A DNA stretch of 64,000 nucleotides from NCBI GenBank assembly GCA_958296175.1, contig OY282448.1, positions 2,150,612 to 2,214,611 of the forward strand, given 5' to 3'. The stretch's first letter is position 1. Every line of letters starts with the position of its first letter. Source of the DNA: an uncultured Chloroflexota bacterium (GTDB lineage: Bacteria > Chloroflexota > UBA11872). Positions 1 through 39,823 of the stretch are shown here, one piece after another. The notes below the pieces were generated by a model. The model searched no databases and was not told the origin of the DNA. It was given only the letters and a program-made list of their open reading frames with translations. The position numbers were made by a program, and so were the translations under genes.

Positions 1-1651
1 CGCGCACCCGCCCGACCCGCCCGACCCGCCCGACCCGGCGGCGCGCCGCTCGCTGCTGGCCTCGCTGGGCCACGCCGCGCCGGGCGTCGTGGTGCTGCAG
101 GGTGACGAGCACCACCGCTGGGCCTTGTACGCCGCGGCCATCCAGGCCGCCGCCGCCGCGGGTCGGCAGGCGCTGGTGGTGGCGCCGGACGACGCCACGG
201 CTTCGGACTGCGCCGCCAGCCTGGCCGTGCGCACCGGCGCGGCCGTGGCCGACGCCGCGCGCGCCTCGACCGACGCCCAGCGCGTGGCCTTGTGGCGCTC
301 GCTGCGCGCGGGCGACATCGACGTGCTGGTCGGGCCGCGCGCCGCCGTCTTCGCCCCGCTCACGCGCCTGGGGGTCGTGATCGTGGACCGCGAGGAAGAC
401 CAGGGGCACAAGAACCGCGCCGGGCCGCCGTTTCTTCCGTACCACGCGCCCGCCGTCGCGGCCCAACTGGCGCGCCTGCACGGCTGCGCGCTGATCCTGG
501 GCGCCGAAACGCCCCGCGTCTCCACGTTCCACGCGGTGGAAACCGAACATTCCCACCTGGTCGTGGCGCAGTCGGCGGAACTGCTGCGGCAGACCTGGCG
601 GCGCGTCGGGCGCGGCTGGGGCATGCAGCGGCCGGCCGGGTACGTAGACATCGTGGACGCGCGCTCCGCCGCCACCGCCGGCCGCCGCGGCGTGATTTCC
701 CGCGCGCTCTACACGGCGCTGCGCAAAACGCTGGAGGCCCGCGGGCGGGCCGTGCTGTACGTCAACCGCCGCGGCGTGGCGGCGCTCACCGTCTGCCGCG
801 ACTGCGGCCACGTGTTCGAGTGTCCCAATTGCAGCACCGGCATGGTGCTGCACGGCCGCGGCGCGCCCATGATGGTCTGCCACATCTGCAACTGGCACGA
901 CCCCGCGCCGTCGCGCTGCCCGGCCTGCGCGGGCGACCGCCTGCGGCTGTGGGGCTATGGCAGCGAAACCGTGGCCGACGCCGTCAGCCATCTGCTGCCG
1001 CGGGCGCGCGTGGCGCGGATCGACAGCGACCGGCCGGCCGCGGACATGGACGCCGACGCGGCGGCATTCACCCGCGGCGCCGTGCAGGTGCTGGTCGGCA
1101 CCCAGCGCCTGCTCGGCTACCGGCATGCACTCGGGGCCGACCTGTTGGGCGTGGTGCAGGCGGACGTCGGCCTGCGCTTCCCCGACTTTCTGGCGCCCGA
1201 GCGCGTGTTCGTCACCCTCATGCGCCTGCGCCGCCTGGTGACGGGCGGCAATCCCGACGCCTGCACGATCGTGCAAACCGTCATGCCCCGGCACCGCGCC
1301 TTGACGGCCTTGCAGACTGGCAGCTACTTGCAGTTCTTCCGCGCCGAGATGGAACAGCGGCGCGCGGAAGGTCTGCCGCCGCTGCGCCCCTTGATCAAGG
1401 CGGCCATTGGTGACGAAGACGATCAGCGCGCGCTCGGCGAGGCCATGCGCGCCCGCAAGGAGCTCGAGACCGTGCGCAGCGCCGGCGCGGACCTCGACCT
1501 GGAAGTTCTGGGCCCGGCGCCCGCCCCAACGCCCCGCCAGCGCGGGCGCTACGTCTGGCAGCTTCTGTTGTTGGGCGAGGATGCGCATCAGACGCTGCCC
1601 CTGTTTCACGGCGGCTGGCACATCGACGCCGACCCGATTGACTTGACATAA
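1..1651 (+). CDS. priA: Primosomal protein N' (PriA), C-terminal ~550 aa; N-terminus lies upstream of the window
   Basis: Helicase C-terminal region followed by the PriA Cys-rich zinc region (CRDCGHVFECPNCS...CHICNW...CPACAG) and C-terminal domain. The frame is open back to nt 2, so the ORF-track start at 89 is not the true start. Confidence 0.85.
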   Translation, partial: AHPPDPPDPPDPAARRSLLASLGHAAPGVVVLQGDEHHRWALYAAAIQAAAAAGRQALVVAPDDATASDCAASLAVRTGAAVADAARASTDAQRVALWRSLRAGDIDVLVGPRAAVFAPLTRLGVVIVDREEDQGHKNRAGPPFLPYHAPAVAAQLARLHGCALILGAETPRVSTFHAVETEHSHLVVAQSAELLRQTWRRVGRGWGMQRPAGYVDIVDARSAATAGRRGVISRALYTALRKTLEARGRAVLYVNRRGVAALTVCRDCGHVFECPNCSTGMVLHGRGAPMMVCHICNWHDPAPSRCPACAGDRLRLWGYGSETVADAVSHLLPRARVARIDSDRPAADMDADAAAFTRGAVQVLVGTQRLLGYRHALGADLLGVVQADVGLRFPDFLAPERVFVTLMRLRRLVTGGNPDACTIVQTVMPRHRALTALQTGSYLQFFRAEMEQRRAEGLPPLRPLIKAAIGDEDDQRALGEAMRARKELETVRSAGADLDLEVLGPAPAPTPRQRGRYVWQLLLLGEDAHQTLPLFHGGWHIDADPIDLT

Positions 1652-1656
1652 CATCT

Positions 1657-2157
1657 ATGGCCGTACTGACCGTCCATCCAGTCGACCACCCCATGCTGCG
1701 CCGCAAGGCCAGCCGCGTCTCCCGCGTCTCGGCAGGCCTGCGCACGTTCGTGGATGACCTGTTCGACACCATGGACGCGAACCGCGGCGCGGGTCTGGCC
1801 GCCACGCAGGTGGGGCGGCCCTGGCGCGTGATCGTGGCGAGCGTAGGCGATGAACGCCTGGCGCTCGTCAACCCCGAAATCGTGCGCGCCAGCGGCGCCG
1901 AAGTGGCCGACGAGGGCTGCCTGAGCCTGCCCAACTGGTTCGGCCCCGTTGAACGGGCAACCGAGGTCACCGTCAAGGGCCGCAGCGTGGACGGCGCGTC
2001 GGTGCGCCGCCGCTTGCGCGGCCTGCTGGCGCGCGTGGTGCAGCACGAGATCGACCACCTGGACGGCATCGTCTTCACCGACCGGCTGGTCGACTCCCAG
2101 CGACTGCGCTTCGTCGATCCGCGCTCGCCCGAAGCCAGCCGCCTGCGCGCGTCCTGA
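1657..2157 (+). CDS. def: Peptide deformylase
   Basis: Motifs GCLSLP and HEIDHLDG; lies immediately downstream of priA and upstream of fmt (canonical def-fmt pair). Confidence 0.9.
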   Translation: MAVLTVHPVDHPMLRRKASRVSRVSAGLRTFVDDLFDTMDANRGAGLAATQVGRPWRVIVASVGDERLALVNPEIVRASGAEVADEGCLSLPNWFGPVERATEVTVKGRSVDGASVRRRLRGLLARVVQHEIDHLDGIVFTDRLVDSQRLRFVDPRSPEASRLRAS

Positions 2158-2163
2158 CGCCCC

Positions 2164-3174
2164 GTGCGCGTCGTCTTCTTCGGCACGCCGGCGTTCGCGG
2201 TTCCGTCCCTGCAGCGGCTGGCGCGCGACTTTCAGGTGGTCTTGGTCGTCAGCCGTCCGGACCGTCCGGTCGGCCGCGCGCGGCGGCTCACCGCGCCGCC
2301 CGCGGCGGCGGCGGCGCGCGCGCTCGACCTGGATCTGTTCCAGCCCCCAAACCCCAACCGCGCGGCAGCCGTCGAGGCCATCGCGTCGTACGAACCTGAC
2401 GCCGTCGTCGTGGCGGCCTACGGCCGTCTGATCCGCGCGCCGCTGCGGCGTCTGGCGCCGCGCGGGGTCGTCAACGCGCACCCCTCGCTGCTGCCCGCCT
2501 ATCGCGGCGCGTCGCCCATCCAGGCGGCCATCGCCGCGGGCGAGACCGCGGCGGGCGTCACGCTTATCCGGCTGGACGACGACCTCGACGCCGGCCCGAT
2601 CGTGGCGGCGCGGCGGCTCGCCATCGGCCCGACCGAACGCGCGCCCTCGCTGCACGACCGCCTGGCCGCCGCGTCGGCCGACCTGCTGGCGGACGTGCTG
2701 CCGCGCTGGGCCGCCGGCGAGGCGGCGGAACGTCCGCAGCGCGCGGACCGCGCCACCCTCACGCGCCCGCTGGAACGCGCCGACGCCGAACTCGATCTGC
2801 GGCGGCCGGCGCGGGAATTGTTCGACCGCTGGCGGGCCTTTCAGCCCTGGCCCGGCGCCTTCGTGCGCGTTGGCGAAACGACCTGCACGCTGGTGGAACT
2901 CGCCGCGCTCCCCGACCCGTCCAGCAGCGGCGCCGTTTGCCCGCCGGACGACGCGCCGCTGCCGGGCTGTGGCGAGGTGCACGTGCGGGACCGCGCCCTG
3001 CTGCTGGGCTGCGGCGCAGGCGCGCTGCGCGTCGAGCGCCTGCAGCCCGCCGGCCGGCGGGCCATGACCGCGCAAGACTTCGAACGCGGCTACCAACGCC
3101 TGCTCGCCATACCCTGGGGCGTCCCCCACCCCGAACCCCGCCCACCGCTCGCCCGCCCGCTGCCCCGCCCGTGA
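2164..3174 (+). CDS. fmt: Methionyl-tRNA formyltransferase
   Basis: N-terminus MRVVFFGTPAFAVPSL and formyl-transferase core HPSLLPAYRGASPIQ; follows def. Confidence 0.9.
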   Translation: MRVVFFGTPAFAVPSLQRLARDFQVVLVVSRPDRPVGRARRLTAPPAAAAARALDLDLFQPPNPNRAAAVEAIASYEPDAVVVAAYGRLIRAPLRRLAPRGVVNAHPSLLPAYRGASPIQAAIAAGETAAGVTLIRLDDDLDAGPIVAARRLAIGPTERAPSLHDRLAAASADLLADVLPRWAAGEAAERPQRADRATLTRPLERADAELDLRRPARELFDRWRAFQPWPGAFVRVGETTCTLVELAALPDPSSSGAVCPPDDAPLPGCGEVHVRDRALLLGCGAGALRVERLQPAGRRAMTAQDFERGYQRLLAIPWGVPHPEPRPPLARPLPRP

Positions 3175-7936: not shown

Positions 7937-8218
7937 GCGTCGGTCGTCCTGATGCCGGCCGGCCGCGCCAGCGCGCCCGCGCGCGAGGGTCCCCAAGCGC
8001 AGCCGACGGGTGGTGATCCGGGCCGCGCCCGCGCGCCCGCGCGCGAGGTGCTGCTCGTCTTGCGCGCGGAAGCCGCAGCCGGATACGACGACTCCGCGGC
8101 GCCCGGCGGCCTCTCGCACTGGATTGCCGCGCATGACCGCGGCGCCGGCGAATTCGGGCAGCTCGCGCAGTACTCGCGGCTGCGTCCGCGCACGCGCGAA
8201 CAGTTGGCGCGCGGCGTG

Positions 8219-10474
8219 ATGGAGCGCCTCGCGCCCAAGCTGCCCAAGCCGTCCGAGCCATCCAAGCCGCTCGAGCCGCCCAAGCCGTCCGAACCGCCCG
8301 AGGCGCAGCGCCCTACGTACGCCGAGGCGCGGCGCGCCTCGCCAGGCGCCGGCGCGGCGCCGAAACCAGCCGCGCGGAGGTCGGGCGCCGCGACCGGACC
8401 GCCGCCCCTCGCGCCCCGCAGCGTCGACGCGCCGGTGAGCGATCTGCCCGGCGTGGGCGGCGCCGCCGTGAAGCGGCTGGCAGCGCTGGACATTCAGACC
8501 GTCGACGACCTGCTGCGGCATCGCCCGCGGCGCTACATCGACCGCGCGTCGGTCGTGGCCATCGCGGACCTCGAGCCGGGACGCGAGGTCACGGTCATCG
8601 GAAACGTGGCTGAGATTCGCGCGCGCCAGTCGGTGTCCGGGCGCGTGCGCGTGATCGAAGCCGCCATCGCCGACGCCAGCGGCGCTCAGATTCTGGCGGT
8701 CTGGTTCAACCAGCCGTACCTGGCCGGGGCGCTGCGCGGCCGCCGCAACGTCGCCTTCGCCGGCCGTGTGGAAACGGGCGCGCACGGCCTGCAGTTCGTC
8801 AGCCCGGAATACGAGCTGGACCTGGGGCGCATGATCCACGCCGGGCGTCTGGTGCCCGTCTACCCGCTCACGCGCGGTCTCACGCAGCGCCAGCTGCGCA
8901 GATGGATGGCCGCGGCGGTGGACGACTACGCGGCGGCGGTGTCCGAAACGCTGCCGGACGAGCTGCGCGGCGCGCACCGGCTGCTCGCCGCCGCGGCGGC
9001 GGTTCGCAACCTCCACTTCCCCGTCGACGCCCAGGCCGCGGCGGCGGCGGCGCGGCGCTTCGCGTTTGCCGAGCTGCTGGTGTTCCAACTGGCGGTGCTG
9101 CAGCATCGCCGCACCTGGCGCGAGAGCCAGCCGGGCCGCGCGGTGGAGTTCCGGCGCGACGCGCTGGCGGCTTTTGGCGCGCGGCTGCCATTCACGCTCA
9201 CGGATGACCAGCGCACCTCCGCGGCCGAGATTCTGAGCGACCTGCGGCGCGACCGCCCCATGAGCCGCCTGCTGCAAGGCGACGTGGGGTCGGGGAAGAC
9301 CGTCGTGGCCGCAGGCGCGCTCTACGCGGTGGTGGACGCCGGCTGGCAGGGCGCCATGATGGCGCCCACGGAAGTGCTGGCCGAGCAGCACGCCGAAACC
9401 TTGCGCGGCCTGCTCCAGCCGCTTGGCGTGCGCGTCGAACTGATCACGGGCGGCGTGCCGGCGGCCGAAAAGCGCAAACGCTGGCGCGGCGTGGAACGCG
9501 GCGAGGTGCACGTGGTGGTCGGCACGCACGCCATCATCCAGCGCAGCGCGCGCTTCGCCCGCCTCAACCTGGCCGTCGTCGACGAGCAACACCGCTTTGG
9601 CGTGCGGCAGCGCGGGGAAATCCGCGCCAAGGGCTACAACCCCCACCTGCTGGCCATGTCGGCCACGCCCATCCCGCGCTCCCTGGCGCTCACGATCTAC
9701 GGCGACCTCGACGTCAGCGTGATCCGGCAACTGCCCCGCGGCCGCAAGCCCATCCACACCTCCTTCGTGCCGCGCAACCGCCGCAGCGACGCCTATGCGT
9801 TCATCCGGCGCGAGGTGGACGCCGGCCGCCAGGCGTTCATCGTGTTTCCGTTGGTCGAGGAGTCCGAGGCTCTCAACGCGCGCGCCGCCGTGGCCGAACA
9901 CGCGCGGCTGACGCGCACCGTCTTTGCGGATCTTGCCGACGCCGTGGGCCTGCTGCACGGGCGCATGAGCACCGCGGACAAGGAGCGCGCCATGCGCGCG
10001 TTCCGCGACGGGGAGCTGCGCCTGCTGGTCAGCACGGCGGTGGTGGAAGTCGGCGTCGACGTGCCCAACGCCACCGTCATCCTGATCGAAGGCGCGGAAC
10101 GGTTCGGCCTGGCGCAGCTGCACCAGCTGCGCGGGCGCGTCGGGCGCGGGCGCTGCCGTTCCTACTGCCTGCTGATGAGCCAGACCACCGACCCCGACGA
10201 GAACGCGCGGCTACGAACCCTGCAAACGGTGCGCGATGGGTTCGCGCTGGCGGAGCGCGACCTGGAGCTGCGCGGCCCGGGCGACGTCATCGGCACCCGG
10301 CAGAGCGGCGCGCTTGGCTTTCGCTTCGCCAGCGTCACCGACCTGCCCACCATCCAGGCGGCGCGCGCCGCCGCCCAGGCGCTGACGCGCGCCGACCCCC
10401 AGCTGGAGCGGCCCGAGCACGCGCCCCTGGCCGCCGAGGTGGAGCGGCTGCTGATCCGCAACGAGTGGAATTAG
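8219..10474 (+). CDS. recG: ATP-dependent DNA helicase RecG
   Basis: N-terminal LPGVGGAAVKRLAALDIQTVDDLLRHRPRRYIDR, Walker A LLQGDVGSGKT, helicase motifs through the C-terminus. Start uncertain: ATG 8219 gives a Pro/Ser/Glu-rich extension, alternative GTG 8435 gives ~680 aa, and the frame is open from 7952. Confidence 0.8.
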   Translation: MERLAPKLPKPSEPSKPLEPPKPSEPPEAQRPTYAEARRASPGAGAAPKPAARRSGAATGPPPLAPRSVDAPVSDLPGVGGAAVKRLAALDIQTVDDLLRHRPRRYIDRASVVAIADLEPGREVTVIGNVAEIRARQSVSGRVRVIEAAIADASGAQILAVWFNQPYLAGALRGRRNVAFAGRVETGAHGLQFVSPEYELDLGRMIHAGRLVPVYPLTRGLTQRQLRRWMAAAVDDYAAAVSETLPDELRGAHRLLAAAAAVRNLHFPVDAQAAAAAARRFAFAELLVFQLAVLQHRRTWRESQPGRAVEFRRDALAAFGARLPFTLTDDQRTSAAEILSDLRRDRPMSRLLQGDVGSGKTVVAAGALYAVVDAGWQGAMMAPTEVLAEQHAETLRGLLQPLGVRVELITGGVPAAEKRKRWRGVERGEVHVVVGTHAIIQRSARFARLNLAVVDEQHRFGVRQRGEIRAKGYNPHLLAMSATPIPRSLALTIYGDLDVSVIRQLPRGRKPIHTSFVPRNRRSDAYAFIRREVDAGRQAFIVFPLVEESEALNARAAVAEHARLTRTVFADLADAVGLLHGRMSTADKERAMRAFRDGELRLLVSTAVVEVGVDVPNATVILIEGAERFGLAQLHQLRGRVGRGRCRSYCLLMSQTTDPDENARLRTLQTVRDGFALAERDLELRGPGDVIGTRQSGALGFRFASVTDLPTIQAARAAAQALTRADPQLERPEHAPLAAEVERLLIRNEWN

Positions 10475-10599
10475 GCGCGGCGTGAACCTGGAGCCAGCAC
10501 GTCGGCCGACCGGTCACGCGCGGCGCCTGGCGCCGCGCGGCAGGTGCGGCGGCGAATCCGCGCATGCGCGAATCCGCACGGCGCGGAGGTAGTCCCAGC

Positions 10600-11190
10600 A
10601 TGGCGGCCCGCGGGCGCGGCGTGACGATTGCGGCGGGCGCGCACCGCGGGCGCCGCCTGCGCGTGTCCGCGGGCGTGCGTCCGACGACCGACCGCGTGCG
10701 CGCCGCCGTTTTCGACGCCCTGGGCGCGCCGCCCGCGCGCGTGCTCGACCTGTACGCCGGCTGCGGCGCCTATGGCATCGAGGCGCTCAGCCGCGGCGCC
10801 GACTACGCCTGCTTCGTCGAGCGCAGCCGCCGCGCCGCCGCCGCCATCGCCCACAATCTGGCCAGCCTGGGCCTGCACGACCGCGGCGTGGTGGTGGTTG
10901 GCGACGCGCAGCGCCCGGCCCGTGCCCGCGGCGGCCCCTTCGGCCTGGTCTTCGCCGACCCGCCCTACGCGCACGCCCCCTGGGCAACCCTCTTCGACGC
11001 CCTGGGCGCGCCGGGCCTGCTGGACCGCCGCGCGGTGCTGGTTGCGGAAACCGGCAGCCGCGCCGGTCCACCCGAACCGTCGGCTGGCTGGCTGCGCCGC
11101 AAGGAACGCCGCCACGGCGATACCGTCTTCACCATCTTCACCCGTCACAACGACGACGCCCCACGCCGCGAGGGCCAAGGGTCGGCGTAA
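10600..11190 (+). CDS. rsmD: 16S rRNA (guanine966-N2)-methyltransferase RsmD
   Basis: RPTTDRVRAAVFDAL...VLDLYAGCGAYGIEALSRGA...FADPPY; ORF-track start 10564, internal Met chosen; upstream of coaD. Confidence 0.8.
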   Translation: MAARGRGVTIAAGAHRGRRLRVSAGVRPTTDRVRAAVFDALGAPPARVLDLYAGCGAYGIEALSRGADYACFVERSRRAAAAIAHNLASLGLHDRGVVVVGDAQRPARARGGPFGLVFADPPYAHAPWATLFDALGAPGLLDRRAVLVAETGSRAGPPEPSAGWLRRKERRHGDTVFTIFTRHNDDAPRREGQGSA

Positions 11191-11254
11191 ACAGGCCGTC
11201 GGACCACCCCGCACCCCTGCCGCGCCGCCCGCGCAGAAAAGACAGGGGCGTACG

Positions 11255-11339
11255 GACGCGCCTGCGCGCACGTGGACGCTGCTCGACCGCACGCCCGGCA
11301 GCCGCCGTCGGGGCCGACGCGCCTGCGCGCACGTGGACG
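11255..11339. repeat. Two perfect 24-bp direct repeats (GACGCGCCTGCGCGCACGTGGACG) spaced 61 bp apart upstream of coaD
   Basis: Identical 24-mers at ~11255-11278 and ~11316-11339 in the 300-bp rsmD/coaD intergenic region; each contains a CACGTG palindrome. Confidence 0.6.
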
Positions 11340-11492
11340 ATGCGCATCCTGCGCATATCCTTTTCTCCGCACGCCGCGCATCCCGCCGCATCCCGCCGCG
11401 GCCTTGCGTGGGCTTCGGGCGTCCTCGGCGCGTCGTCGATTCACGACCCGAATCGCCGCTATACTGACTGCGACTTCGCCGGAGGATCGGCG

Positions 11493-11984
11493 ATGCGCGC
11501 ACTGTTCCCGGCCACGTTCGACCCGGTGACCAACGGTCACATGGATATACTGGCGCGTGCGTCCAGCGTCTTCGACAGCGTGGTGGCCGGAGTATTCGAA
11601 AGCGATCGCGAGGACACGCTGTTCACTGCGGCCGAACGCGAGGAGCTGCTGGGCGTGGCCGTTGCGCACCTGCCCAACGTCGAAGCCTGCACCTACTCGG
11701 GGCTGACCGTGGACTTCGCGCGTCAGATCGACGCGCGCGTGCTGGTTCGCGGGCTGCGGGCCGTGTCGGACTTCGAGTATGAATTCGCGCTCTCGGCCAT
11801 GAACCGGCGGTTGCACCCCGACGTTGACACCATGTTCTTCCTGTCCGCGCCCGAGCACGCGTTCGTCAGCTCGTCGCTCATTCGCGAGATCGGTGCGCTT
11901 GGCCGCTCCGTCGCCCCCTTTGTCCCAGCAAACGTGGCCGCGGCAATCGGATCGAAGTTTGCTCCCCGTACAGAGCGGAGGTAG
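11493..11984 (+). CDS. coaD: Phosphopantetheine adenylyltransferase
   Basis: MRALFPATFDPVTNGHMDIL (T/HxGH nucleotidyltransferase motif), ~163 aa. Internal Met of the 11340 ORF; preceded by GGAGGA and a TATACT -10-like hexamer. Confidence 0.9.
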   Translation: MRALFPATFDPVTNGHMDILARASSVFDSVVAGVFESDREDTLFTAAEREELLGVAVAHLPNVEACTYSGLTVDFARQIDARVLVRGLRAVSDFEYEFALSAMNRRLHPDVDTMFFLSAPEHAFVSSSLIREIGALGRSVAPFVPANVAAAIGSKFAPRTERR

Positions 11985-19101: not shown

Positions 19102-19974
19102 TTACCTGTCCGCCTGGGCGCTGGTGCGCACGTCGATCTCGCCAATGGAGACGTACGCCGCGTGCCCGTGGTTGGACGACACGCGCAGCACGACGTAGCG
19201 CGCGATGCTGATCGGGAACTCGATGCGGGTTTCGGGCTGCGCGTCCAGGTCTACGTCGCGCGCCAGCGCCAGCTCCGCCGCGTCGATGCGCGGGTCGGCG
19301 TCGTACGAGGTCAGCACCTGCAGCCGCCGCGGATAGCTGGCCGGCGGCTCGGACGGGTGATTGCGGATGGTGACGCTGGCCACCGGGCTGCGCAGGTTGA
19401 GCTTCAGCACCAGGTCGAGCGGGAAGGCCGTGTCGGCCGACCGCCAGGCGGGGAAGTCGGGGTGCACCAGCCCGTCGATCAAGGCGTCCGCCTCGTGGCC
19501 CGCCTGCGAGCCGCCCGCGGCAGTGGCCCGGCCGCCCACCGCCGCCGCCGAGACCAGCGCCCCGCGGGTCGGGTCGGACCCGTCGAACAGCAGCTGCATC
19601 TTCACGGCCAGGTCGCGGCGCAGGTCGCTGCCGTTGGAAACGACGTACAGCTGCGCCGCCATGGCCAGCGACAGCGCCATGACGATCCCGAACGGGATCC
19701 AGTTGACGCTCCAGAGGCTGCGCCGCAGCGAGGTGCGCCGCAGTTCGGCGCGGCGTTCCAGCTGTCCGCGGCAGACCGTGCACACGTGGCCCCAGGCCGT
19801 GTCGTGCATGGCCTCGTCGCAAAAGAGCCGCCCGCAGTGGTCGCAGCGCTGCGACGCTACGCGCGTGGGGTAGACCGTGCAGCGGTAGAGCGCCATCTCC
19901 CGCGCGCCCTGTGGAAACAGCCGCCGGCTGGGCGGCCGCTTCGGCGGCTCGGCAAAGGGGTCGAGCGTAGTCAT
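19102..19974 (-). CDS. Hypothetical membrane protein: N-terminal zinc ribbon, one TM helix, C-terminal discoidin (F5/8 type C)-like domain
   Basis: CxxC...CxxC cluster (CDHCGRLFC...CTVCRG), TM segment WIPFGIVMALSLAMAAQLYVV, and a C-terminal ...ARYVVLRVSSNHGHAAYVSIGEIDV resembling the end of galactose-binding/discoidin domains. True start may be the internal Met (MALYRC...). Confidence 0.45.
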   Translation of the reverse strand: MTTLDPFAEPPKRPPSRRLFPQGAREMALYRCTVYPTRVASQRCDHCGRLFCDEAMHDTAWGHVCTVCRGQLERRAELRRTSLRRSLWSVNWIPFGIVMALSLAMAAQLYVVSNGSDLRRDLAVKMQLLFDGSDPTRGALVSAAAVGGRATAAGGSQAGHEADALIDGLVHPDFPAWRSADTAFPLDLVLKLNLRSPVASVTIRNHPSEPPASYPRRLQVLTSYDADPRIDAAELALARDVDLDAQPETRIEFPISIARYVVLRVSSNHGHAAYVSIGEIDVRTSAQADR

Positions 19975-20106
19975 GCGCGGAGGCTCCGCCGCCAGCGCGG
20001 GATTGCGCCCAGAGCCGCGGCGCGGCGCGCCCGCTCCTTATACTTGCGGGGTCCGGCCGGCGACGGCGCGTGCGCAGGCACCTCCGGCGTCCATATACGT
20101 GGTGTC

Positions 20107-26776: not shown

Positions 26777-28270
26777 TTACAGCAGCGAGCTGGCGACGGC
26801 CGCCTGCGCCCAGGCCAGCAGCCCGCCGCCCACGATGCCGAAGGCCACCGTTGCGCCCGCCGTCACGGCCACCACGGCCGAATGCGCGTCGGCCACCGCG
26901 CCCGACGCCGCGGGCGCGTCCGCCGCCGCAGACGCCGCGGCCGGCGCGTCTTCGTCCTCCATGAACATCAGCACCACCACCCGCAGGTAGTAGAACGCCG
27001 ACACCACCGAGGTCACCACCAGCGTGACGGCCAGCCAGCCCAGGCCGGCGTCCACCGCGGATTGCAGAATGTAGAGCTTGCCCAGGAAACCGGACAGCGG
27101 CGGCACGCCCGTCAGCGAGAGCATGAAGACTGCCATCGCCGCCGCCGGCAGCATGGAGCGCCGCGCCAGACCGCGGAAGGCGCTCAGGTCGTTGCTGTCC
27201 GTCTGGGCTTCCACCACGTAGGCCACCGCGAACGCGCCGAAGGTCATCAGCGCATAGACGAAACCGTAGAACAACACCGACGGCACGCCCACGAAGTCGG
27301 CGCCCGCGTCCGTCTGGCTGACGGCGGCCACGCCCACCAGCATGTAGCCCGTGTGCGCGATGCTGGAATAGCCCAGCATGCGCTTCACGTCCGACTGCGC
27401 AATGGCTGCCAGGTTGCCCAAGATCATGGTGGCGGCGGCGATGACCGCCAGCGCCACGGTGATGTTGGCGGCCAGCGGCTCGAAGGCCAGCGTCACCACC
27501 CGCGCCAGCAGCGCCATGGCGGCCACTTTGGGGCCAACCGAGACGAATGCCGCGGCTGGCGTGGGCGCGCCCTGATAGGCGTCGGGCGTCCAGGCGTGGA
27601 ACGGCACGGCCGCCACCTTGAACCCCAGCGCGACCAGAATCAACCCCAGCGCGAACAGGCTCCAGGGTTCGTCGCCGCGGCTGGCGATGCCGTCCGCCGT
27701 CTCGGCCAGGCTGGTCGTGCCCGTCAGCCCGTAGCTCCAGGCGATGCCGTACACCAGCACCGCCGAGGCGAACGCGCCCAACGCGAAGTACTTCATGGCC
27801 GCTTCCAGCGAGGCGCGCCGGAAGCGGGTCAATCCCACCAGCACGTACACCGGAATGGCCATGGTCTCGATGGCGATGAAGGCCGTGGCCCAGTCCGCCG
27901 CCCCGACCAGCAGCATCATGCCCAGCAGCGAGAACTGCAGCAGCGCCGCAAAGTCGATGAGCGGCGCCGAGGGAAACCGCTGCGCGCCGAAGACGATGGC
28001 CAGCGAGGCCAGCAGGAGGAACAGCGTGCGGAAGAAGGTGGAATAGCCGTCCACCACCAGCTGCCCGGCGAAGAGCTCCACGGCGGCGCCGTCGGCCGGC
28101 GTGCGCATGAATAGCATCAGCGCCGCGGAACCGTTGCCGGCCAGCGCAATGCTCACGCTCATCCAGCGCCGGTCGCCGCGCGTGATTGCCGCCCACAGCA
28201 GCAGTGTCAGCGCCGTGCCCAGCACGATCAGCTCGGGAACGACGTAGCCCAGGTCGCCAGGTTCGATCAT
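26777..28270 (-). CDS. nuoN: NADH-quinone oxidoreductase subunit N
   Basis: ~14-TM antiporter-like subunit, last gene of the cluster. Confidence 0.9.
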   Translation of the reverse strand: MIEPGDLGYVVPELIVLGTALTLLLWAAITRGDRRWMSVSIALAGNGSAALMLFMRTPADGAAVELFAGQLVVDGYSTFFRTLFLLLASLAIVFGAQRFPSAPLIDFAALLQFSLLGMMLLVGAADWATAFIAIETMAIPVYVLVGLTRFRRASLEAAMKYFALGAFASAVLVYGIAWSYGLTGTTSLAETADGIASRGDEPWSLFALGLILVALGFKVAAVPFHAWTPDAYQGAPTPAAAFVSVGPKVAAMALLARVVTLAFEPLAANITVALAVIAAATMILGNLAAIAQSDVKRMLGYSSIAHTGYMLVGVAAVSQTDAGADFVGVPSVLFYGFVYALMTFGAFAVAYVVEAQTDSNDLSAFRGLARRSMLPAAAMAVFMLSLTGVPPLSGFLGKLYILQSAVDAGLGWLAVTLVVTSVVSAFYYLRVVVLMFMEDEDAPAAASAAADAPAASGAVADAHSAVVAVTAGATVAFGIVGGGLLAWAQAAVASSLL

Positions 28271-29748
28271 GGTTGCCCCGCCAGGCCGGCCGTGGCCGTG
28301 CCGAGAAGCCGCACGAACGTGTCAGGGAAAATACCCACCCACACGACTAGCACGCCCAGGCCCGCGAACGTTGCGATTTCCAGGCGGTTCGCGTCTGGAA
28401 TTGCCGCCAGGGACTGGTTGCGCAGGCGGCCCAGCACCACGCGTTGATACATCCACAGCATGTAGGCCGCCGCCAGGATCACGCCCAGCGCGGCCAGCAC
28501 GCCCACGGCCGTGTCGTAGCCGAACGCGCCGACCAGTACCAGGAACTCGCCCACGAACCCGCTCAGCAACGGAAGCCCCAGCGAGGCCAACATGAAGAAG
28601 CCGAAGATCGCCGCATACAGCGGCATCCGCGGCGCCAGGCCGCCCAGATCGTCGATGCGGCGCGTGTGGGCGCGTTCGTACACCACGCCAACCGCAAAGA
28701 ACAGCGCCGGGCTGATGACCCCGTGGCTGAGCATCTGGATGATCGCGCCGTCCATGCCGGTCTGACTGGCGGTGAAAATACCCAGCGTGACGAACCCCAT
28801 GTGGCTGACGCTGGAGTAGGCCACCAGCTTCTTGAGGTCCGGCTGCACCAGGGCCACCAGCGCGCCGTAAATGATGGCCGCCAGCGAGAGCGCCACCAGC
28901 AGGCCGCGCGTCTCGTCCACCGCCGCCGGCGTCATCGGCAGCAGGAAGCGCAGAAAACCGTAAGCGCCCATCTTGAGCAGCACGCCCGCCAGCACCATGC
29001 TGCCGGCCGTGGGCGCCTCCACGTGCGCGTCGGGCAGCCAGGTGTGGAACGGGAACATGGGCACCTTGATGGCGAAGGCCAGGAAGAAGGCCGCGAAGAC
29101 CCAGCGCTGCAGCACCAGCGGCGCGCCCGCCATTTCTGCGGGAATCGCTTCGATGTCGAACGTGCCCGTGGTCAACCGGATGGCCAGGATTGCCACCAGC
29201 ATCAACACGCTGCCGGCAAAGGTGTAGAGGAAGAACTTCACCGTGGCGTAGATGCGGCGCTCGTGCCCCCAGACTCCGATCATCAGGTACATCGGAATCA
29301 ACGCCATTTCCCAGAAGACGTAGAACAGGATGAAGTCCAGCGTGACGAACACGCCCAGCATGGCCGTCTGCAAAACGACCAGCGCCGCGAAGAACTCGCG
29401 CTCGCGCTTGTGGATGGTGAGCCAGGCCGCGCCCACCACCAGCGGTCCCAGAACGCCGGTCAGCAGGACCATCAGGATGGATACGCCGTCCACGCCTAGC
29501 TTGTAGGAAATGCCCAGGGCGGGGATCCACTCCGCCGCTTCCACGAACTGATAGCCGCTGGCGTTGTGGTCGAACCTGACCGTGACCAGGATGGCGATGG
29601 CGGCCTGCACCAGGCTGGCGGCCAGCGCTCCCAGCGCGATGGCGCCGCGGCTGCGCGCCAGCACGATGACCGGCAGCCCGACCAGCAGCGGCAGCCAGAG
29701 CGCCAGGGACAGGTAAGGAAAGTCGAGGGCGGTTTCGCCGGTTGTCAT
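28267..29748 (-). CDS. nuoM: NADH-quinone oxidoreductase subunit M
   Basis: WLPDAHVEAPTAGSMVLAGVLLKMGAYGFLRF signature. Confidence 0.9.
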   Translation of the reverse strand: MTTGETALDFPYLSLALWLPLLVGLPVIVLARSRGAIALGALAASLVQAAIAILVTVRFDHNASGYQFVEAAEWIPALGISYKLGVDGVSILMVLLTGVLGPLVVGAAWLTIHKREREFFAALVVLQTAMLGVFVTLDFILFYVFWEMALIPMYLMIGVWGHERRIYATVKFFLYTFAGSVLMLVAILAIRLTTGTFDIEAIPAEMAGAPLVLQRWVFAAFFLAFAIKVPMFPFHTWLPDAHVEAPTAGSMVLAGVLLKMGAYGFLRFLLPMTPAAVDETRGLLVALSLAAIIYGALVALVQPDLKKLVAYSSVSHMGFVTLGIFTASQTGMDGAIIQMLSHGVISPALFFAVGVVYERAHTRRIDDLGGLAPRMPLYAAIFGFFMLASLGLPLLSGFVGEFLVLVGAFGYDTAVGVLAALGVILAAAYMLWMYQRVVLGRLRNQSLAAIPDANRLEIATFAGLGVLVVWVGIFPDTFVRLLGTATAGLAGQP

Positions 29749-29752
29749 GCCG

Positions 29753-31672
29753 TCACCGGAAGAGCACCAGGCCGCCCACGGTGAGCACCAGGCCGACCAC
29801 CATCAGCAGGGCGTAGTTTTGCGCTTGTCCGGTTTGAATCCGTCCGGCCTGGCCGCCGGCGAAGCGCGACAGTTTCCCAACGCCGTTGACGATGCCGTCC
29901 ACCACGCCCGCGTCGAACCCCCACGAGAGCATAGCTGCGGCCTTGGTCAGCGCCACCATGAACCCGTCGCCCAGGTGGTCCAGGTACCACTTCTGTCGGA
30001 ACAAGGTTTCGGCGCCTGGGGCCAGCGCGCGGGCGCGCTGCGGGATTGGCAGCCCGCGGCCGTAAGCGCCCAGGGCCAGCAGCAGACCCGTCAGCGCGGC
30101 CACCGTCGACACCACGGCCAGGATCAGCGTGGGCGCCGCGCCGGCGCCTTCGAGGTGCAGCACGCCGGCGGCGTGTTCCAGATAGCCGTGGATGACGCCG
30201 TGTTCGGGCGGAATGCCCAGCACGGCCCCGCTCAGCGCCGCACCCGCCGCCAGCACGATCAGCGGCACGGTCATAACCCAGGGCGATTCGTGCGCGTGCT
30301 CGTGCAGCGCCGCGTCGCGCGGCGCGCCGTGGAAGGTCTTCACGATCATGCGGAAGGTGTAGAACGCGGTCAGCACCGAGACGGTCAGCCCGGTGGCGTA
30401 GAACAGCCAGAAGACGCCCGCGCCGTGATCGGCGGTCAGGGCGCCGCCGGGGTCGGCGGCCGCTTTCAGGAACACGTGCGCCAACACTTCATCCTTGCTC
30501 CAGAACCCGGCCAGGGGAAAGACCGCGGCCAGGGCCAGGCCGCCGAGTATGAAGGTGGCGTAGGTTACTGGCAGCTTGCGCCGCAGGCCGCCCATGCGCC
30601 GCATGTCCTGTTCGTCGTTCAGCGCGTGGATCACGCTGCCGGAGCCGAGGAACAGCAGCGCCTTGAAGAAGGCGTGCGTGGCCAGGTGAAAGATCGCCAC
30701 CGTGTAGGCGCCTGCGCCGGCCGCCAGAAACATGAGGCCCAGCTGGCTCACCGTGGAGTAGGCCAGCACGCGCTTGATGTCCGTTTGCACCAGGGCGATG
30801 GTGGCGGCCAGCACGGCCGTGAACGCGCCGACGGCCGCCACCAGCAGCAGCGCTTCCGGCGCCTGCGTGTAGAGCGGATTCATGCGCACGACCAGATACA
30901 CGCCGGCCGTCACCATGGTGGCGGCGTGAATCAGCGCGCTGACTGGCGTGGGGCCTTCCATGGCGTCGGGCAGCCACACGTGCAGCGGAAACTGCGCCGA
31001 CTTGCCCATGGCCCCGACGAACAGCAGGCAGGCGATGGCCGTCACCATGCCCGCGTCCGCCGATCCCAGCCCGGCAAAAATCTCGCGGTAGCGCAGCGTG
31101 CCGAACTCCAGGAAGGCCAGGATGATGCCGATGGCGAACCCGAAGTCCCCGATGCGGTTCACCAGGAACGCCTTCGTGGCCGCCGCGTTGGCGCTGTCGC
31201 GGTCGTACCAGTAGCCGATCAGCAGATACGAACACAGCCCCACCATCTCCCAGAAGACGAAGAGCTGCAGCAGGTTGTCGGAGATGACCAGCATGATCAT
31301 GCTGAACACGAACAGCGGAATCCAGGTGAAGAAGCGCGGCTTGTTCGCGTCGTGGTCCATGTAGCCCACCGCGTACAGCGACACCAGCGCGCTGACGCCG
31401 GTGACGACCAGCAGCATCACGATCGTCAAGGCGTCGGTCAGGAACGCGATGTCGATGGTGAAGCCGCCGCTAGCGACCCAGCGGTACAGCAGCGACTCGT
31501 CCTGGTCCGCGCCGGCGCTTGCGATCCAAAGCGCCACGGTTGCCGCAAACGACCCCACGACGGCCGCCGTGGACACCCAGCCGGTCCAGCGCGGATTGCG
31601 CCTGCCAAACAGGCCGTTGACCGCGAACGCCGCCAGCGGCAGCAGCGGGATGATCCAGGGGGCGTTCAGCAT
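29753..31672 (-). CDS. nuoL: NADH-quinone oxidoreductase subunit L
   Basis: 639 aa antiporter-like subunit with long C-terminal extension. Confidence 0.9.
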   Translation of the reverse strand: MLNAPWIIPLLPLAAFAVNGLFGRRNPRWTGWVSTAAVVGSFAATVALWIASAGADQDESLLYRWVASGGFTIDIAFLTDALTIVMLLVVTGVSALVSLYAVGYMDHDANKPRFFTWIPLFVFSMIMLVISDNLLQLFVFWEMVGLCSYLLIGYWYDRDSANAAATKAFLVNRIGDFGFAIGIILAFLEFGTLRYREIFAGLGSADAGMVTAIACLLFVGAMGKSAQFPLHVWLPDAMEGPTPVSALIHAATMVTAGVYLVVRMNPLYTQAPEALLLVAAVGAFTAVLAATIALVQTDIKRVLAYSTVSQLGLMFLAAGAGAYTVAIFHLATHAFFKALLFLGSGSVIHALNDEQDMRRMGGLRRKLPVTYATFILGGLALAAVFPLAGFWSKDEVLAHVFLKAAADPGGALTADHGAGVFWLFYATGLTVSVLTAFYTFRMIVKTFHGAPRDAALHEHAHESPWVMTVPLIVLAAGAALSGAVLGIPPEHGVIHGYLEHAAGVLHLEGAGAAPTLILAVVSTVAALTGLLLALGAYGRGLPIPQRARALAPGAETLFRQKWYLDHLGDGFMVALTKAAAMLSWGFDAGVVDGIVNGVGKLSRFAGGQAGRIQTGQAQNYALLMVVGLVLTVGGLVLFR

Positions 31673-31702
31673 CGGGGCGCACTCATCGCGTGAAGCAGGG
31701 CG

Positions 31703-32002
31703 TCACCCTCGCAGACTGTCGAGTTGGTCCACGTTGACCACCGGATACACGCGGCTCAGCGCCACCAGGATGGCAAGCCCCACGGCCACTTCCGCCGCCG
31801 CCACCGTGAGCGAGAAGATCACCAGCACGAACCCGGCCTGGTCGTCCAGATAGGCCGAGAAGGCGGCCAGCGTGACGTTGGCGCCTTGCAGCATCAGCTC
31901 GATCGACATCAGCATCACGATGGCGTTGCGGCGAATCAGCACACCCATGGCACCGATGGAAAAGATCAACGCGCCCACCACCAGAAAGCCGTTCAGCGTC
32001 AT
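31703..32002 (-). CDS. nuoK: NADH-quinone oxidoreductase subunit K
   Basis: 99 aa, three TM helices, SIELMLQGANV motif. Confidence 0.9.
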   Translation of the reverse strand: MTLNGFLVVGALIFSIGAMGVLIRRNAIVMLMSIELMLQGANVTLAAFSAYLDDQAGFVLVIFSLTVAAAEVAVGLAILVALSRVYPVVNVDQLDSLRG

Positions 32003-32643
32003 CGCGGCGATTCCTGCGCGGCCTGCGCGGCCTGTTCGGCCTGCGCCGCCGAATCAGCGCCGTTCGCCGCGGACGTCTGCGCCCGCTGGCGCGGGAAGTC
32101 GGCGCGCTCGTGCTCCTCGATGCGGCGCGCCAGCACGATTGCCCCGACGGTTGCGGCCGTCAGCATCACGCTCGCGCCCAGGAAGGGCAGCGTGTAGTCG
32201 TTGAACAACGCCACGGCCAGCGCCTCGGCGCTGCCGCCCAGTTCGGACACGGTCGCCGGCGGGAACGCGCCCTTGATCGACTCCCGCACCTCCGGCGTGC
32301 CGGCCCCGATGACGACCGCCTCCACCGCCAGCAGCAGCGCCAGCGGAATGCCCAGCCAGAGCTGCCGATGGGTCACGCGCTCTTCCGGCAGGTGCCGCAG
32401 ATCCAGCATCATCAGCGTGAACAGGAACAGCACCACAATCGCGCCCGCGTAGATGGCGATTTGCGCCACGGCCAGGAATCCGGACCCCAGGATCGCGAAG
32501 AACCCGGCCACGTGGAAGATCACCACGACCAGAGAAATGGCCGAGTGCACCGGGTTGCGCACCGAGACCATCAACAGCGACGCCGCCACCGACGCGGCGG
32601 CCAGGTACCAGAACGCGAGATGGGTTTCGATGTTGTCAGGCAT
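31999..32643 (-). CDS. nuoJ: NADH-quinone oxidoreductase subunit J
   Basis: Five-TM subunit overlapping nuoK by 4 nt. Confidence 0.85.
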   Translation of the reverse strand: MPDNIETHLAFWYLAAASVAASLLMVSVRNPVHSAISLVVVIFHVAGFFAILGSGFLAVAQIAIYAGAIVVLFLFTLMMLDLRHLPEERVTHRQLWLGIPLALLLAVEAVVIGAGTPEVRESIKGAFPPATVSELGGSAEALAVALFNDYTLPFLGASVMLTAATVGAIVLARRIEEHERADFPRQRAQTSAANGADSAAQAEQAAQAAQESPR

Positions 32644-32702
32644 CGAGACTCACCGGCGCGCGGCGCGCGCGGCTGCCGCGGCGGGGCGAGTGGAGACCGA
32701 AC

Positions 32703-33194
32703 TCAGCCACGTTCGAACCAGTTGGCAATGGCGGCGCCGGGGCCGATGTTGTGCTGTTCCGCTTCCCGATACGCCTGGTCGTTCTCGTAGATCTCGATCA
32801 TCTTCTGGCCGTCGATCAGCAGGCCGCGGCGGTCCTCGGTGACGAGGTGGAAGTCGTGCGTGCGCTGCAGGGCGTCCACCGGGCAGGCCTCGATGCAGAA
32901 GTAGCAGAACACGCAGCGCCCCACGTCGAACAGGTAGCGGTCGACGAAGCGGGTGCCGTCCGCGTTTTCGCTGGTGTCCACCCGAATCACGTCGTTGGGG
33001 CAGGCGGTCTCGCACAGGCCGCAGCCCACGCAGGTCATGCCGCCCGTCACCTCGTCGCGCCGCATGCCCACCTGGCCGCGGAAGCGGTAGCCGATGTCGC
33101 GCACGTGCTCCGGATACATCACGGTGGACGGCTTGCGCCGGCCGACCATGAGCACGGTCTTGAGTCCGGTCAGAACGCCTGATCCAAGGGGCAT
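32703..33194 (-). CDS. nuoI: NADH-quinone oxidoreductase subunit I (2x[4Fe-4S] ferredoxin)
   Basis: Two CxxCxxCxxxCP motifs (CVGCGLCETACP, CVFCYFCIEACP). Confidence 0.9.
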   Translation of the reverse strand: MPLGSGVLTGLKTVLMVGRRKPSTVMYPEHVRDIGYRFRGQVGMRRDEVTGGMTCVGCGLCETACPNDVIRVDTSENADGTRFVDRYLFDVGRCVFCYFCIEACPVDALQRTHDFHLVTEDRRGLLIDGQKMIEIYENDQAYREAEQHNIGPGAAIANWFERG

Positions 33195-33197
33195 GAG

Positions 33198-34199: not shown

Positions 34200-34201
34200 G
34201 C

Positions 34202-39564: not shown

Positions 39565-39823
39565 CGCGCGGACTTCGCGCTTCTGCGGGCGTGCTGCGGC
39601 CGCTCACAGGATGCACGCTTTTCGCGCCCGCGGCGCGTGCGCGGCCGCCGGGCAGCGTTCGCGGGCGGCGCACGTCGGCACCCATGCCTCGCCGCGGCGT
39701 GACGGCGCGCCGCCGCGGACGGCGGGGTGTCCGCGGCGGCGCCGAACCGGCTAGCATCGTCCACCCGCGGCCGCGGCATTGGCGCGCCGCGCGCCCGACC
39801 CACCTGGAGGCGCCCCGACCACG

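Follow-up and report, generated by a model that had tools for sequence, protein, structure and literature searches.

What becomes of a replication restart protein when its motor is taken apart? PriA restarts broken DNA replication, and the 64-kb stretch of DNA analysed here (the window), from an uncultured Chloroflexota lineage, starts within a priA gene for which degenerate Walker A and Walker B motifs had been predicted. We asked whether this is a functional priA that has turned into a pseudohelicase, a gene in decay, an active enzyme with unusual residues, a protein that binds a ligand without hydrolysing it, or a specialised paralogue.

The window starts within a priA gene

Frame 2 of the + strand is open over positions 2-1651, and its translation includes ...GVVVLQGDEHHRWALYAAAIQAAAAAGRQALVVAPD... 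and ...LVGPRAAVFAPLTRLGVVIVDREEDQGHK..., the two strings read there in the original prediction. The 549 encoded amino acids are residues 271-819 of an 819-aa protein, P0001, and are 100% identical to it over the shared stretch, which agrees with the expectation that only the C-terminal ~550 aa lie inside the window. They span helicase lobe 1, lobe 2 with an inserted Cys-rich region, and the C-terminal domain (Table 1); GC by codon position is 0.77/0.54/0.92.

The identification of the gene product as PriA, also made earlier, was confirmed by profile and by structure. TIGR00595 (cut-off 230 bits) matched the 549-aa part with 319 bits (E=5e-95), and the K. pneumoniae and E. coli PriA structures in the PDB matched residues 41-524 with E=3e-58 to 6e-57. 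The AlphaFold model of P0001 (pLDDT 91.5, pTM 0.91) had only PriA among its best Foldseek matches (8fak_H, TM 0.85, E=5e-43), followed by Mfd, RecG and DEAD-box cores. The model and these matches show the two-lobe RecA-like SF2 core fold, and the N-terminal beta-barrel and helix-turn-helix modules are modelled with pLDDT above 90.

Table 1. Features of the priA locus, in window coordinates
Feature	Position	Strand	Basis or remark
3' part of priA, C-terminal 549 aa and stop codon	2..1651	+	translation, TIGR00595, PDB, P0001
Perfect 9-bp x 3.6 tandem repeat ACCCGCCCG, codes (PPD)n	6..37	+	TRF
Degenerate motif I (Walker A), LQGDEHHRW	95..121	+	HMMER and MAFFT alignments
Degenerate motif Ia, QALVVAPDDATA (canonical ALvLVPEIaLTp), Pro alone kept	167..202	+	alignment
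Motif Ib, retained, VLVGPRAAVFAP (canonical vVvGTRSAvFAP), DNA-contacting element; G and R invariant	323..358	+
Degenerate motif II (Walker B), VVIVDREED	374..400	+	alignment
Loop equivalent to E. coli PriA aromatic-rich loop	401..457	+	alignment
Degenerate motif III, LILGAETP (canonical LGSATP)	491..514	+	alignment
Clade-specific variable insertion between motifs III and IV	572..643	+	disordered in model; clade consensus undefined here
Motif IV, retained, AVLYVNRRG	749..775	+	alignment
Cys-rich region, CxxC...CxxC...CxxC...CxxC	794..928	+	PF18319 match
Motif V, partly retained, VLVGTQRLLGY: GTQ kept, following AKG lost	1088..1120	+	alignment
Degenerate motif VI, LMRLRRLVTGG (canonical LtQvaGRaGRg)	1217..1249	+	alignment
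PriA C-terminal domain	1391..1588	+	PF18074, 31.6 bits vs cut-off 26.9; confident in model
def (peptide deformylase), directly downstream of priA	1657..2157	+	PF01327, E=1e-41
fmt (methionyl-tRNA formyltransferase)	2164..3174	+	PF00551 and PF02911; conserved synteny
recG, related SF2 fork-remodelling helicase, same gene string	7952..10474	+	Pfam RecG_wedge, DEAD, Helicase_C, RecG_dom3_C

Walker A and Walker B are both replaced

The protein was aligned with members of its Chloroflexota clade and with canonical PriAs. At the Walker A site, G-DEHHRW falls on GVTGSGKT with a one-residue deletion; compared with AGVTGSGKT of E. coli, both P-loop glycines are gone, Lys230 is replaced by Arg and Thr231 by Trp. 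HMMER and MAFFT agree on this register, with R39 of the window protein (nt 116-118) aligned to the Walker lysine K230 and W40 to T231. The original prediction was therefore right that Walker A is degenerate but wrong that its lysine is simply missing, since after correction of the register an Arg occupies the Lys position. This column reads R in 48 of 48 clade members and K in 63 of 63 canonical PriAs, and the neighbouring Thr column reads W in 42 of the 48 and T in all 63.

Walker B reads DREED (nt 386-400), as had been predicted, where canonical PriAs have DEEHD. The Asp is kept; in the full-length alignment the catalytic Glu321 has become Arg (nt 389-391) and His323 of the DExH has become Glu, each in 48/48 clade members, and the motif is fixed as [DE]REED across the clade.

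A search of the full-length 819-aa protein for a canonical GxGKT/DEEH pair elsewhere found none, and the degeneracy stands. No [AG]x4GK[ST] occurs anywhere in P0001 by motif scan, and Walker A is absent throughout each of P0001-P0054; the full-length proteins among P0055-P0120 all carry it except P0115, which belongs to a Nitrospirota lineage. Three look-alike strings in P0001 were considered and rejected. DEHH at residue 305 is what remains of Walker A, DEDD at residue 741 lies inside the C-terminal domain, and GKT at residues 158-160, located between two helices in the winged-helix domain, does not have the spacing of a Walker motif and falls in a segment where those canonical PriAs that have it mostly read G-R-[GA].

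All other ATP-site motifs have degenerated as well

The original prediction named motifs I and II only, whereas the degeneration covers every ATP-site motif, namely Q, I, Ia, II, III, V and VI. An alignment of 65 canonical PriAs has 121 columns with at least 90% conservation. The Chloroflexota clade keeps 76 of them and has lost 34, and nearly all of the lost ones lie within these motifs. The column of the Q-motif glutamine (E. coli Q203), conserved in 100% of the 65 canonical PriAs and in 0% of the clade, falls in the ACCCGCCCG repeat, where nt 32-34 encode Asp; the repeat is part of the linker ahead of helicase lobe 1 and has lower pLDDT. Motif III has lost both Ser and Ala, and its Glu is 96% conserved in the clade. 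From the QxxGRxGR of motif VI both arginines and both glycines are gone, and the Gln is Arg in 48/48.

The residues that stand in the former ATP cleft in their place are invariant or nearly so: R309, R400, E402, E439, R357, R519 and R678, which in E. coli numbering make the set K230R, E321R, H323E, A357E, S278R, Q420R and Q580R. These residues may make up a network of charges that occupies the cleft, and such a network would fix the position of the two lobes relative to each other.

Could such a protein still be an active ATPase and helicase that works with non-canonical residues, for example with Arg for the P-loop Lys? A positive charge is indeed present at the Walker Lys position in 48/48, and Walker B keeps its Asp and its third acidic residue. 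However, K230R alone kills the ATPase of E. coli PriA (PMC4504706, PMC5778457), and in the Chloroflexota protein the losses go further: the glycines and the Thr of Walker A, the catalytic Glu and the Gln of the Q motif are missing, as are Ser and Ala from motif III and both arginines from motif VI, so that we consider an active enzyme very improbable.

The remainder of the PriA protein is retained

Motif IV has its N, R, R and G without exception in the clade, and these residues are conserved in canonical PriAs too. All 48 clade and all 63 canonical sequences have the eight zinc-ligand cysteines, and PF18074 scores above its cut-off, bearing out the earlier statement that the zinc region and the C-terminal domain are kept. 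Outside the window, the N-terminal part of full-length P0001 carries PF17764, the 3'-end-binding domain. An altered residue in the 3'-end-binding pocket (E. coli D17) was considered as a pseudohelicase trait and rejected; the position is unconserved, and canonical PriAs mostly have Thr there.

The equivalent of the aromatic-rich loop (ARL), a concept taken from PMC5175346, has an invariant Lys, His in place of Tyr, and in this genome an extra PFL insertion. Another insertion, variable and specific to the clade, lies between motifs III and IV (Table 1), and residues 466-480 of P0001 have pLDDT below 50.

Compared with canonical PriA (E. coli and K. pneumoniae; PDB 4NL4, 6DGD, 8FAK), the Chloroflexota protein has the same domain order and fold. 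The eight zinc cysteines and the C-terminal domain are common to both, as are motifs Ib and IV, the GTQ in motif V and the priA-def-fmt gene order, but the Chloroflexota protein is without Walker A, DExH and QxxGRxGR.

The loss is fixed in a Chloroflexota clade under purifying selection

The loss of the ATP motifs is a fixed property of the whole Chloroflexota clade, maintained under purifying selection, and not an oddity of one gene. The same replaced residues occur in at least 48 protein clusters and in 42 species-level genomes of Chloroflexota, most of them marine or sponge MAGs. Among pairs with dS of 0.2-0.5, dN/dS was 0.09-0.21; by region, lobe 1 gave 0.04-0.29 and lobe 2 with the Cys-rich region 0.07-0.13.

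These data bear on the simplest alternative, that priA is a pseudogene or a decaying gene, or that errors of sequencing or assembly in one MAG spoiled its motifs. The motifs do look broken, and the data are metagenome-assembled genomes. Nevertheless, clade-wide invariance and low dN/dS refute this alternative in practice, and we give it practically no weight: across the 48 clusters and 42 species-level genomes the gene has an uninterrupted frame of about 810 aa and invariant replacement residues, dN/dS is 0.1-0.2 throughout, helicase lobes included, and the structure is modelled with high confidence.

Gene order places priA at its ancestral locus

The gene string gmk-priA-def-fmt-Zn peptidase-radical SAM-rpe-fakA(-recG) is conserved in the 42 species-level Chloroflexota genomes, and def holds its place in 42/42 related loci. 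A motif scan showed that the motifs of recG are intact (GDVGSGKT, DEQH, QLRGRVGR). Rfam gave no match within the 64-kb window, which thus holds no rRNA.

The gene order argues against a paralogue with a specialised role, active alongside a canonical PriA from another locus of the genome, since the gene stands at the ancestral priA position (gmk-priA-def-fmt...rpe...recG) in 42/42 loci. A weak second point is that none of the canonical PriAs within the 120 best relatives of P0001 lies on a contig equal in length to any of the approximately 35 large contigs (0.1-4 Mb) with the clade gene. On gene order and on this comparison among relatives of P0001, we consider a paralogue unlikely.

A probable natural counterpart of priA300 and of Deinococcus PriA

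Taken together, we favor the interpretation, at a probability of roughly 0.8, that this gene is a priA orthologue, functional in its uncultured Chloroflexota lineage, and that its product has turned into a pseudohelicase. The motif loss, and the analogy with E. coli K230R and with D. radiodurans PriA, suggest that P0001-type PriAs are without ATPase and helicase activity.

A precedent in Deinococcus had been pointed out in the original prediction, and Lopper, Boone & Morrow (2015; PMC4504706) do describe such a protein: D. radiodurans PriA has no ATPase or helicase activity, binds ssDNA, forks and DnaB, and likewise has Arg in place of the Walker lysine. The Chloroflexota protein has the sequence features of the Deinococcus-Thermus type of pseudohelicase, as a PriA homologue with degenerate motifs I and II and Lys to Arg in GKT. 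Both match Walker A and Walker B poorly and keep the rest of the protein. They differ in that the Chloroflexota protein belongs to another phylum and is known from its sequence, that Q, Ia, III, V and VI are replaced too, and that its substitutions, E321R and H323E among them, hold without exception across the clade.

In E. coli, PriA K230R has its ATPase and helicase abolished and yet supports primosome assembly and viability (PMC4504706; PMC5778457); this allele, priA300, is without ATPase, helicase and translocase activity and gives near-wild-type growth via the PriA-PriB pathway (PMC5778457, PMC4504706). The Lys to Arg change at the Walker A lysine is common to priA300 and the Chloroflexota protein. 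However, priA300 is a single point mutation made in the laboratory, in an ATP site that is otherwise intact, whereas 34 of 121 conserved columns are replaced in the Chloroflexota protein and the state is natural in a whole lineage.

The six-domain architecture of PriA (3'-end-binding domain, winged helix, two RecA-like lobes, Cys-rich region and C-terminal domain) is kept as a whole. With every element for binding and hydrolysing ATP replaced, and with motifs Ib and IV, which contact DNA, and the GTQ of motif V kept, the protein is predicted still to recognise abandoned forks and D-loops. By analogy with the helicase-dead PriAs above, it may serve as a passive scaffold to which the replicative helicase DnaB is brought, directly or via a loader. 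Strand remodelling would be left to other enzymes, for example the intact RecG encoded 6 kb downstream.

Probable helicase-dead PriAs in other lineages

Full-length PriAs without Walker A also occur in Nitrospirota, with Arg at the Lys position in 117 of 119 clusters, and in an Aminicenantes-type lineage, with Arg in both of 2 loci. This extends the loss beyond what has been published. The degenerate motifs II, III and VI of these two lineages differ in sequence from those of the Chloroflexota clade, and Walker B is variable in Nitrospirota where it is fixed in Chloroflexota. A literature search on PriA and replication restart with Chloroflexi or Nitrospira returned no papers, and the degenerate PriAs of Nitrospirota and of the Aminicenantes type are apparently undescribed in the literature searched.

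Actinobacterial PriAs may be degenerate too. The actinobacterial PriA at locus L043 (Actinobacteria UBA912) is canonical, the candidate at L047 (Blastococcus) was rejected as it is Mfd, and a search for literature on degenerate actinobacterial PriAs found nothing.

The nearest relatives of P0001 outside its clade are canonical PriAs, including a Roseiflexus group. Its 120 closest relatives include no Deinococcus-Thermus protein, and all those outside the clade are canonical save one Nitrospirota protein. In a neighbor-joining tree of the pseudohelicase lineages other than Deinococcus-Thermus, with canonical PriAs and 200 bootstraps, the pseudohelicase lineages grouped in 73% of replicates, with a signature of long-branch attraction. 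This grouping is confounded by long branches, because the distances between the pseudohelicase lineages (1.5-1.8) exceed their distances to canonical PriAs (1.4-1.55).

Arg for the Walker lysine, the natural equivalent of priA300, is thus found in the Chloroflexota clade, in Nitrospirota and in the Aminicenantes-type lineage, and from the literature in Deinococcus-Thermus. Its recurrence in three aligned lineages, with a fourth published, suggests a retained role for the positive charge, as would be expected if the protein no longer hydrolyses but still binds a nucleotide or another phosphate ligand as a conformational switch. We think there is little chance of this. The glycine-rich loop and the Q motif are gone and the loop is one residue shorter, which makes the phosphate-binding geometry of a P-loop unlikely, and an Arg stands at the site of the Glu that activates Mg/water. 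Loss of the motor in a PriA that is otherwise kept remains our preferred interpretation.

PriA helicase activity can harm, and missense mutations in helicase motifs suppress recG defects (PMC10870727). Tentatively, and with the odds somewhat against it, helicase-dead PriA may be a recurrent evolutionary outcome, and the Arg/Glu set of Chloroflexota could lock the two RecA lobes in one 'loader-scaffold' conformation. If true, selection has repeatedly removed a PriA helicase activity that can be harmful through over-replication and has kept fork recognition and DnaB reloading.

What is known is a helicase-dead PriA in Deinococcus; what is new is a Chloroflexota lineage in which every ATP-using motif is replaced. 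Conservation of the helicase serves as an argument that unwinding is important in nature, although E. coli tolerates its loss. A second and a third natural lineage, each large, under purifying selection and with its ATP site dismantled, challenge that argument, and one of them is the ecologically important Nitrospirota. Because of these lineages, restart without unwinding by PriA appears to be a repeatable and stable solution. They provide natural comparison sets for asking which PriA surfaces are needed in fork recognition and helicase loading, why Arg always stays at the Walker lysine position, and how the lost activity is compensated (RecG, SSB, type of loader). For annotation, the name "replication restart helicase" is unsuitable for such PriAs. 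Of the MAGs, the jk18x bins were obtained from sponges of the genus Ircinia in the Caribbean, and UBA6622 carries the label of an unclassified Chloroflexi bacterium.

The window gene encodes a member of the PriA family

Frame 2 of the forward strand reads without interruption from the start of the window to a stop at 1649-1651 and encodes a product of 549 residues, with a GC content of 0.77/0.54/0.92 at the three codon positions, the third-position bias of a real gene in a sequence of 71% GC overall. The product matched the PriA equivalog model TIGR00595 with 319 bits (cut-off 230, E = 5e-95), and its residues 41-524 matched the PriA structures of K. pneumoniae and E. coli (E = 3e-58 to 6e-57). 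Pfam detected the PriA zinc ribbon and the PriA C-terminal domain in the window product, and no DEAD or Helicase_C domain. An 819-aa protein from a 3.0-Mb contig in the public collection (P0001) was 100% identical over the window part, and therefore the window encodes residues 271-819. The AlphaFold2 model of P0001 (82-sequence alignment; mean pLDDT 91.5, pTM 0.91) was ordered except at residues 466-480, an insertion specific to the clade. The solved structures that matched it best were all PriA (8fak_H, TM 0.85, E = 5e-43), with Mfd, RecG and DEAD-box cores far weaker. By five structural and sequence criteria the window protein is a PriA family member, and, as judged from its motifs, it does not qualify as an active SF2 helicase.

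The ATP site has lost its motifs

The original prediction had read this gene as a PriA with degenerate Walker A and Walker B motifs. The motif strings it quoted were found where it had placed them, the observation is real and the interpretation is correct. At Walker A, QG-DEHHRW stands in place of the E. coli GVTGSGKT, with one residue deleted and both P-loop glycines absent; HMMER and MAFFT placed R39 of the window protein under the Walker lysine (K230, E. coli numbering) and W40 under T231. Walker B reads D-R-E-E-D instead of D-E-E-H-D. Full-length P0001 contains no canonical motif pair elsewhere: [AG]x4GK[ST] does not occur, and DExx appears just twice, as the Walker A remnant itself and as DEDD in the C-terminal domain.

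The alignment comprised 48 full-length members of the Chloroflexota clade that shares this protein, 63 canonical PriAs that the same search had returned, three locus-derived proteins and E. coli PriA. The K230 column was R in 48/48 clade members and K in 63/63 canonical PriAs, T231 was W in 42/48 and T in 63/63, E321 was R in 48/48 and E in 63/63, and H323 was E in all 48 clade members. The eight zinc cysteines were invariant in both sets.

Helicase motifs in the clade and in canonical PriAs
Motif	Clade	Canonical	State in clade
I	qG-.e.dRw	GVTGsGKT	lost
Ia	vaPda	LVPEIaL	lost, Pro kept
Ib	VGtR	VGtR	kept
II	V[DE]REED	vDEEHd	lost
III	GtETP	GSATP	lost
IV	VNRR	NRR	kept
V	GTQ, no AKG	GTq...AKG	partly kept
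VI	mRLrrlvtg	tQvaGRaGR	lost

Among 65 canonical PriAs, 121 alignment columns were at least 90% conserved; the clade kept 76, lost 34 and was mixed at 11. The loss is specific to the ATP site, because nearly all of the 34 lost columns belong to the Q motif (Q203) or to motifs I (225-231), Ia (251-257), II (321, 323), III (356, 357), V (544-554) and VI (576-587), or are H277, S278, Q420 and R569. Many of the substituted residues are fixed in their turn, with R309, R400, E402 and R678 (P0001 numbering) in 100% of the clade, E439 in 96%, R519 in 94% and R357 in 92%. As read from the alignment, the ATP site is rebuilt, not eroded.

A GKT tripeptide upstream of the window (P0001 158-160, inside LGKTAATRG; G in 47/48, K in 46/48 and T in 48/48 clade members) was rejected as a P-loop, since its spacing is not that of a Walker motif and it sits in the winged-helix domain with a helix on either side. 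Canonical PriAs that have the same segment mostly read G-R-[GA] there. Within priA, 3.6 perfect tandem copies of a 9-bp unit (ACCCGCCCG) encode PPDPPDPPDP in the linker, at the place of the Q motif in canonical PriAs, and slippage could change the number of copies.

The loss is clade-wide and under selection

Clusters P0001-P0054 contain the same type of protein, about 810 aa long; over the part searched, identity to the window protein is 47-68%. None of these clusters had a precomputed DEAD or Helicase_C match, and every match from P0055 on had one, except P0115. With each GTDB species represented by one genome, a scan yielded 42 loci of the clade type, every one in a MAG that carries the label Chloroflexota or Chloroflexi. 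Several of these MAGs are closed chromosomes of 3-4 Mb, and many are from marine sponges or seawater, the jk18x bins being Ircinia sponge symbionts (PMC9531527).

In twelve pairs analyzed by the Nei-Gojobori method, dN/dS was 0.09-0.21 for the whole gene (pairs with dS of 0.2-0.5), 0.04-0.29 for helicase lobe 1, and 0.07-0.13 for lobe 2 plus the Cys-rich region. A decaying gene was rejected because the protein type is the same across the clade, dN/dS is low even in the helicase lobes, and the AlphaFold2 model is confident. The loss of the helicase motifs is clade-wide and under selection.

The clade priA lies in a conserved gene order

The order gmk-priA-def-fmt-Zn peptidase-radical SAM-rpe-FakA/DAK2-like is kept in more than 40 Chloroflexota MAGs (L002-L042 and L044); L021 is the one locus in which the radical-SAM gene is missing, and a subgroup carries about 0.9 kb more between fmt and the peptidase gene. 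Relatives have gmk and prfA upstream of priA, and in the window recG follows the FakA/DAK2-like gene. A string gmk...priA-def-fmt...rpe...recG is known from Firmicutes. The clade order resembles this priA-to-recG string, which supports a vertically inherited orthologue at the ancestral priA locus and not a transferred paralogue. Among the 120 closest relatives of P0001, no canonical PriA had a contig equal in length to any of the large contigs with the clade gene, a weak and indirect hint against a second priA.

Features of the window
Feature	Position (nt)	Strand	Remark
priA, frame 2	1 to stop 1649-1651	+	
9-bp tandem repeat	6-37		in priA
R39 codon	116-118	+	Walker lysine position
Walker B position	386-400	+	
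def	1657-2157	+	downstream of priA
fmt	2164-3174	+	downstream of priA
recG	7952-10474	+	GDVGSGKT, DEQH and QLRGRVGR intact
9/18/27-bp tandem repeat	8232-8306		in recG, imperfect
ORF	10474-11502	-	failed codon-position GC filter
ORF	19105-20037	-	gene-like codon-position GC bias
nuo string	26777-38151	-	complex I
Hydantoinase/oxoprolinase A-type	39755-41818	+	
ORF	43957-44946	-	gene-like codon-position GC bias
Hydantoinase/oxoprolinase A-type	49438-51486	-	

A PriA that may work without a motor

In E. coli, the priA300 product, PriA K230R, is devoid of ATPase, helicase and translocase activity, still assembles primosomes, and leaves cells nearly wild type via the PriA-PriB route (PMC5778457; PMC4504706). 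D. radiodurans PriA, whose motifs I and II are poor and whose Walker lysine is likewise Arg, neither hydrolyzes ATP nor unwinds forks; its binding to ssDNA has a Kd of about 215 nM and its binding to forks one of about 109 nM, and with DnaB it gives a shift on native gels (PMC4504706). PriA helicase activity is potentially deleterious, and suppressors of recG defects map to the PriA helicase motifs (PMC10870727).

By analogy with the published behavior of E. coli K230R and D. radiodurans PriA, we infer that the Chloroflexota PriA is without ATPase and helicase activity and would act as a scaffold for fork recognition and DnaB reloading. Where remodelling is needed, one candidate enzyme is RecG, encoded nearby with intact motifs. 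The former ATP cleft is now lined by invariant Arg and Glu residues, which suggest a putative salt-bridge network that would fix both lobes.

The Deinococcus-Thermus PriA pseudohelicase is the closest described case. The window protein likewise falls under the sequence definition (a PriA in which motifs I and II are degenerate and the Walker lysine has become Arg); unlike that case, known here by its published description, it comes from another phylum and its ATP site is more thoroughly dismantled. It is another member of the known PriA-pseudohelicase type, not a new kind of system.

Putative helicase-dead PriAs in other lineages

P0115, the one match outside the clade without helicase Pfam domains, served as the seed of a search, which brought in 119 further clusters (P0173-P0291), almost all named, where a name was given, as Nitrospirota, Nitrospiraceae, Nitrospirales or Nitrospira sp. 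None of the 119 had a Walker A at the proper site; the Walker lysine position was Arg in 117, and the catalytic Glu of Walker B was variable in the Nitrospirota PriAs (D, E, Q, G or R). The genome scan also gave PriAs from a Candidatus Aminicenantes MAG (L045:5959-7941) and an uncultured bacterium (L046:5476-7458), with GGRGARRA, VEDESD and IRMIRFTRP as motifs I, II and VI and intact zinc cysteines; by these motifs they are a third kind of pseudohelicase.

The shared Arg apart, the degenerate motifs differ among the three lineages, and every pseudohelicase lineage is nearer to canonical PriAs than to the others, both of which favor independent losses. A single origin might be read from the neighbor-joining bootstrap, which grouped the pseudohelicase lineages in 73% of replicates, a grouping that long branches can produce. 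A 2017 review lists Deinococcus as the sole exception (PMC5778457). No paper that ties replication restart by PriA to Chloroflexi or Nitrospira came up in full-text searches, and no published mention of a Nitrospirota PriA without Walker A was found. Predicted helicase-dead PriA is thus wider than published, extending to the Chloroflexota clade, Nitrospirota and an Aminicenantes-type lineage, and such a PriA with Arg at the Walker lysine may be a repeated natural outcome.

Other features of the window

The recG product has about 170 Pro/Ala-rich residues before the wedge domain, and the position of its start codon is uncertain; its tandem repeat encodes PKPSEPSKPLEPPKPSEPPE. Rfam at the gathering threshold found no tRNA, rRNA, riboswitch or other family in the whole 64-kb window, and Pfam (E<=1e-4) found no domain in the three tabulated ORFs of 310-343 aa. 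The nuo string comprises N, M, L, J, I, H and a molybdopterin-type G, with neither nuoE nor nuoF between D and G; a 507-aa ORF containing NuoD may be a C-D fusion. The two hydantoinase/oxoprolinase genes lie 8 kb apart, with an ABC ATPase, serS and lysS between them.
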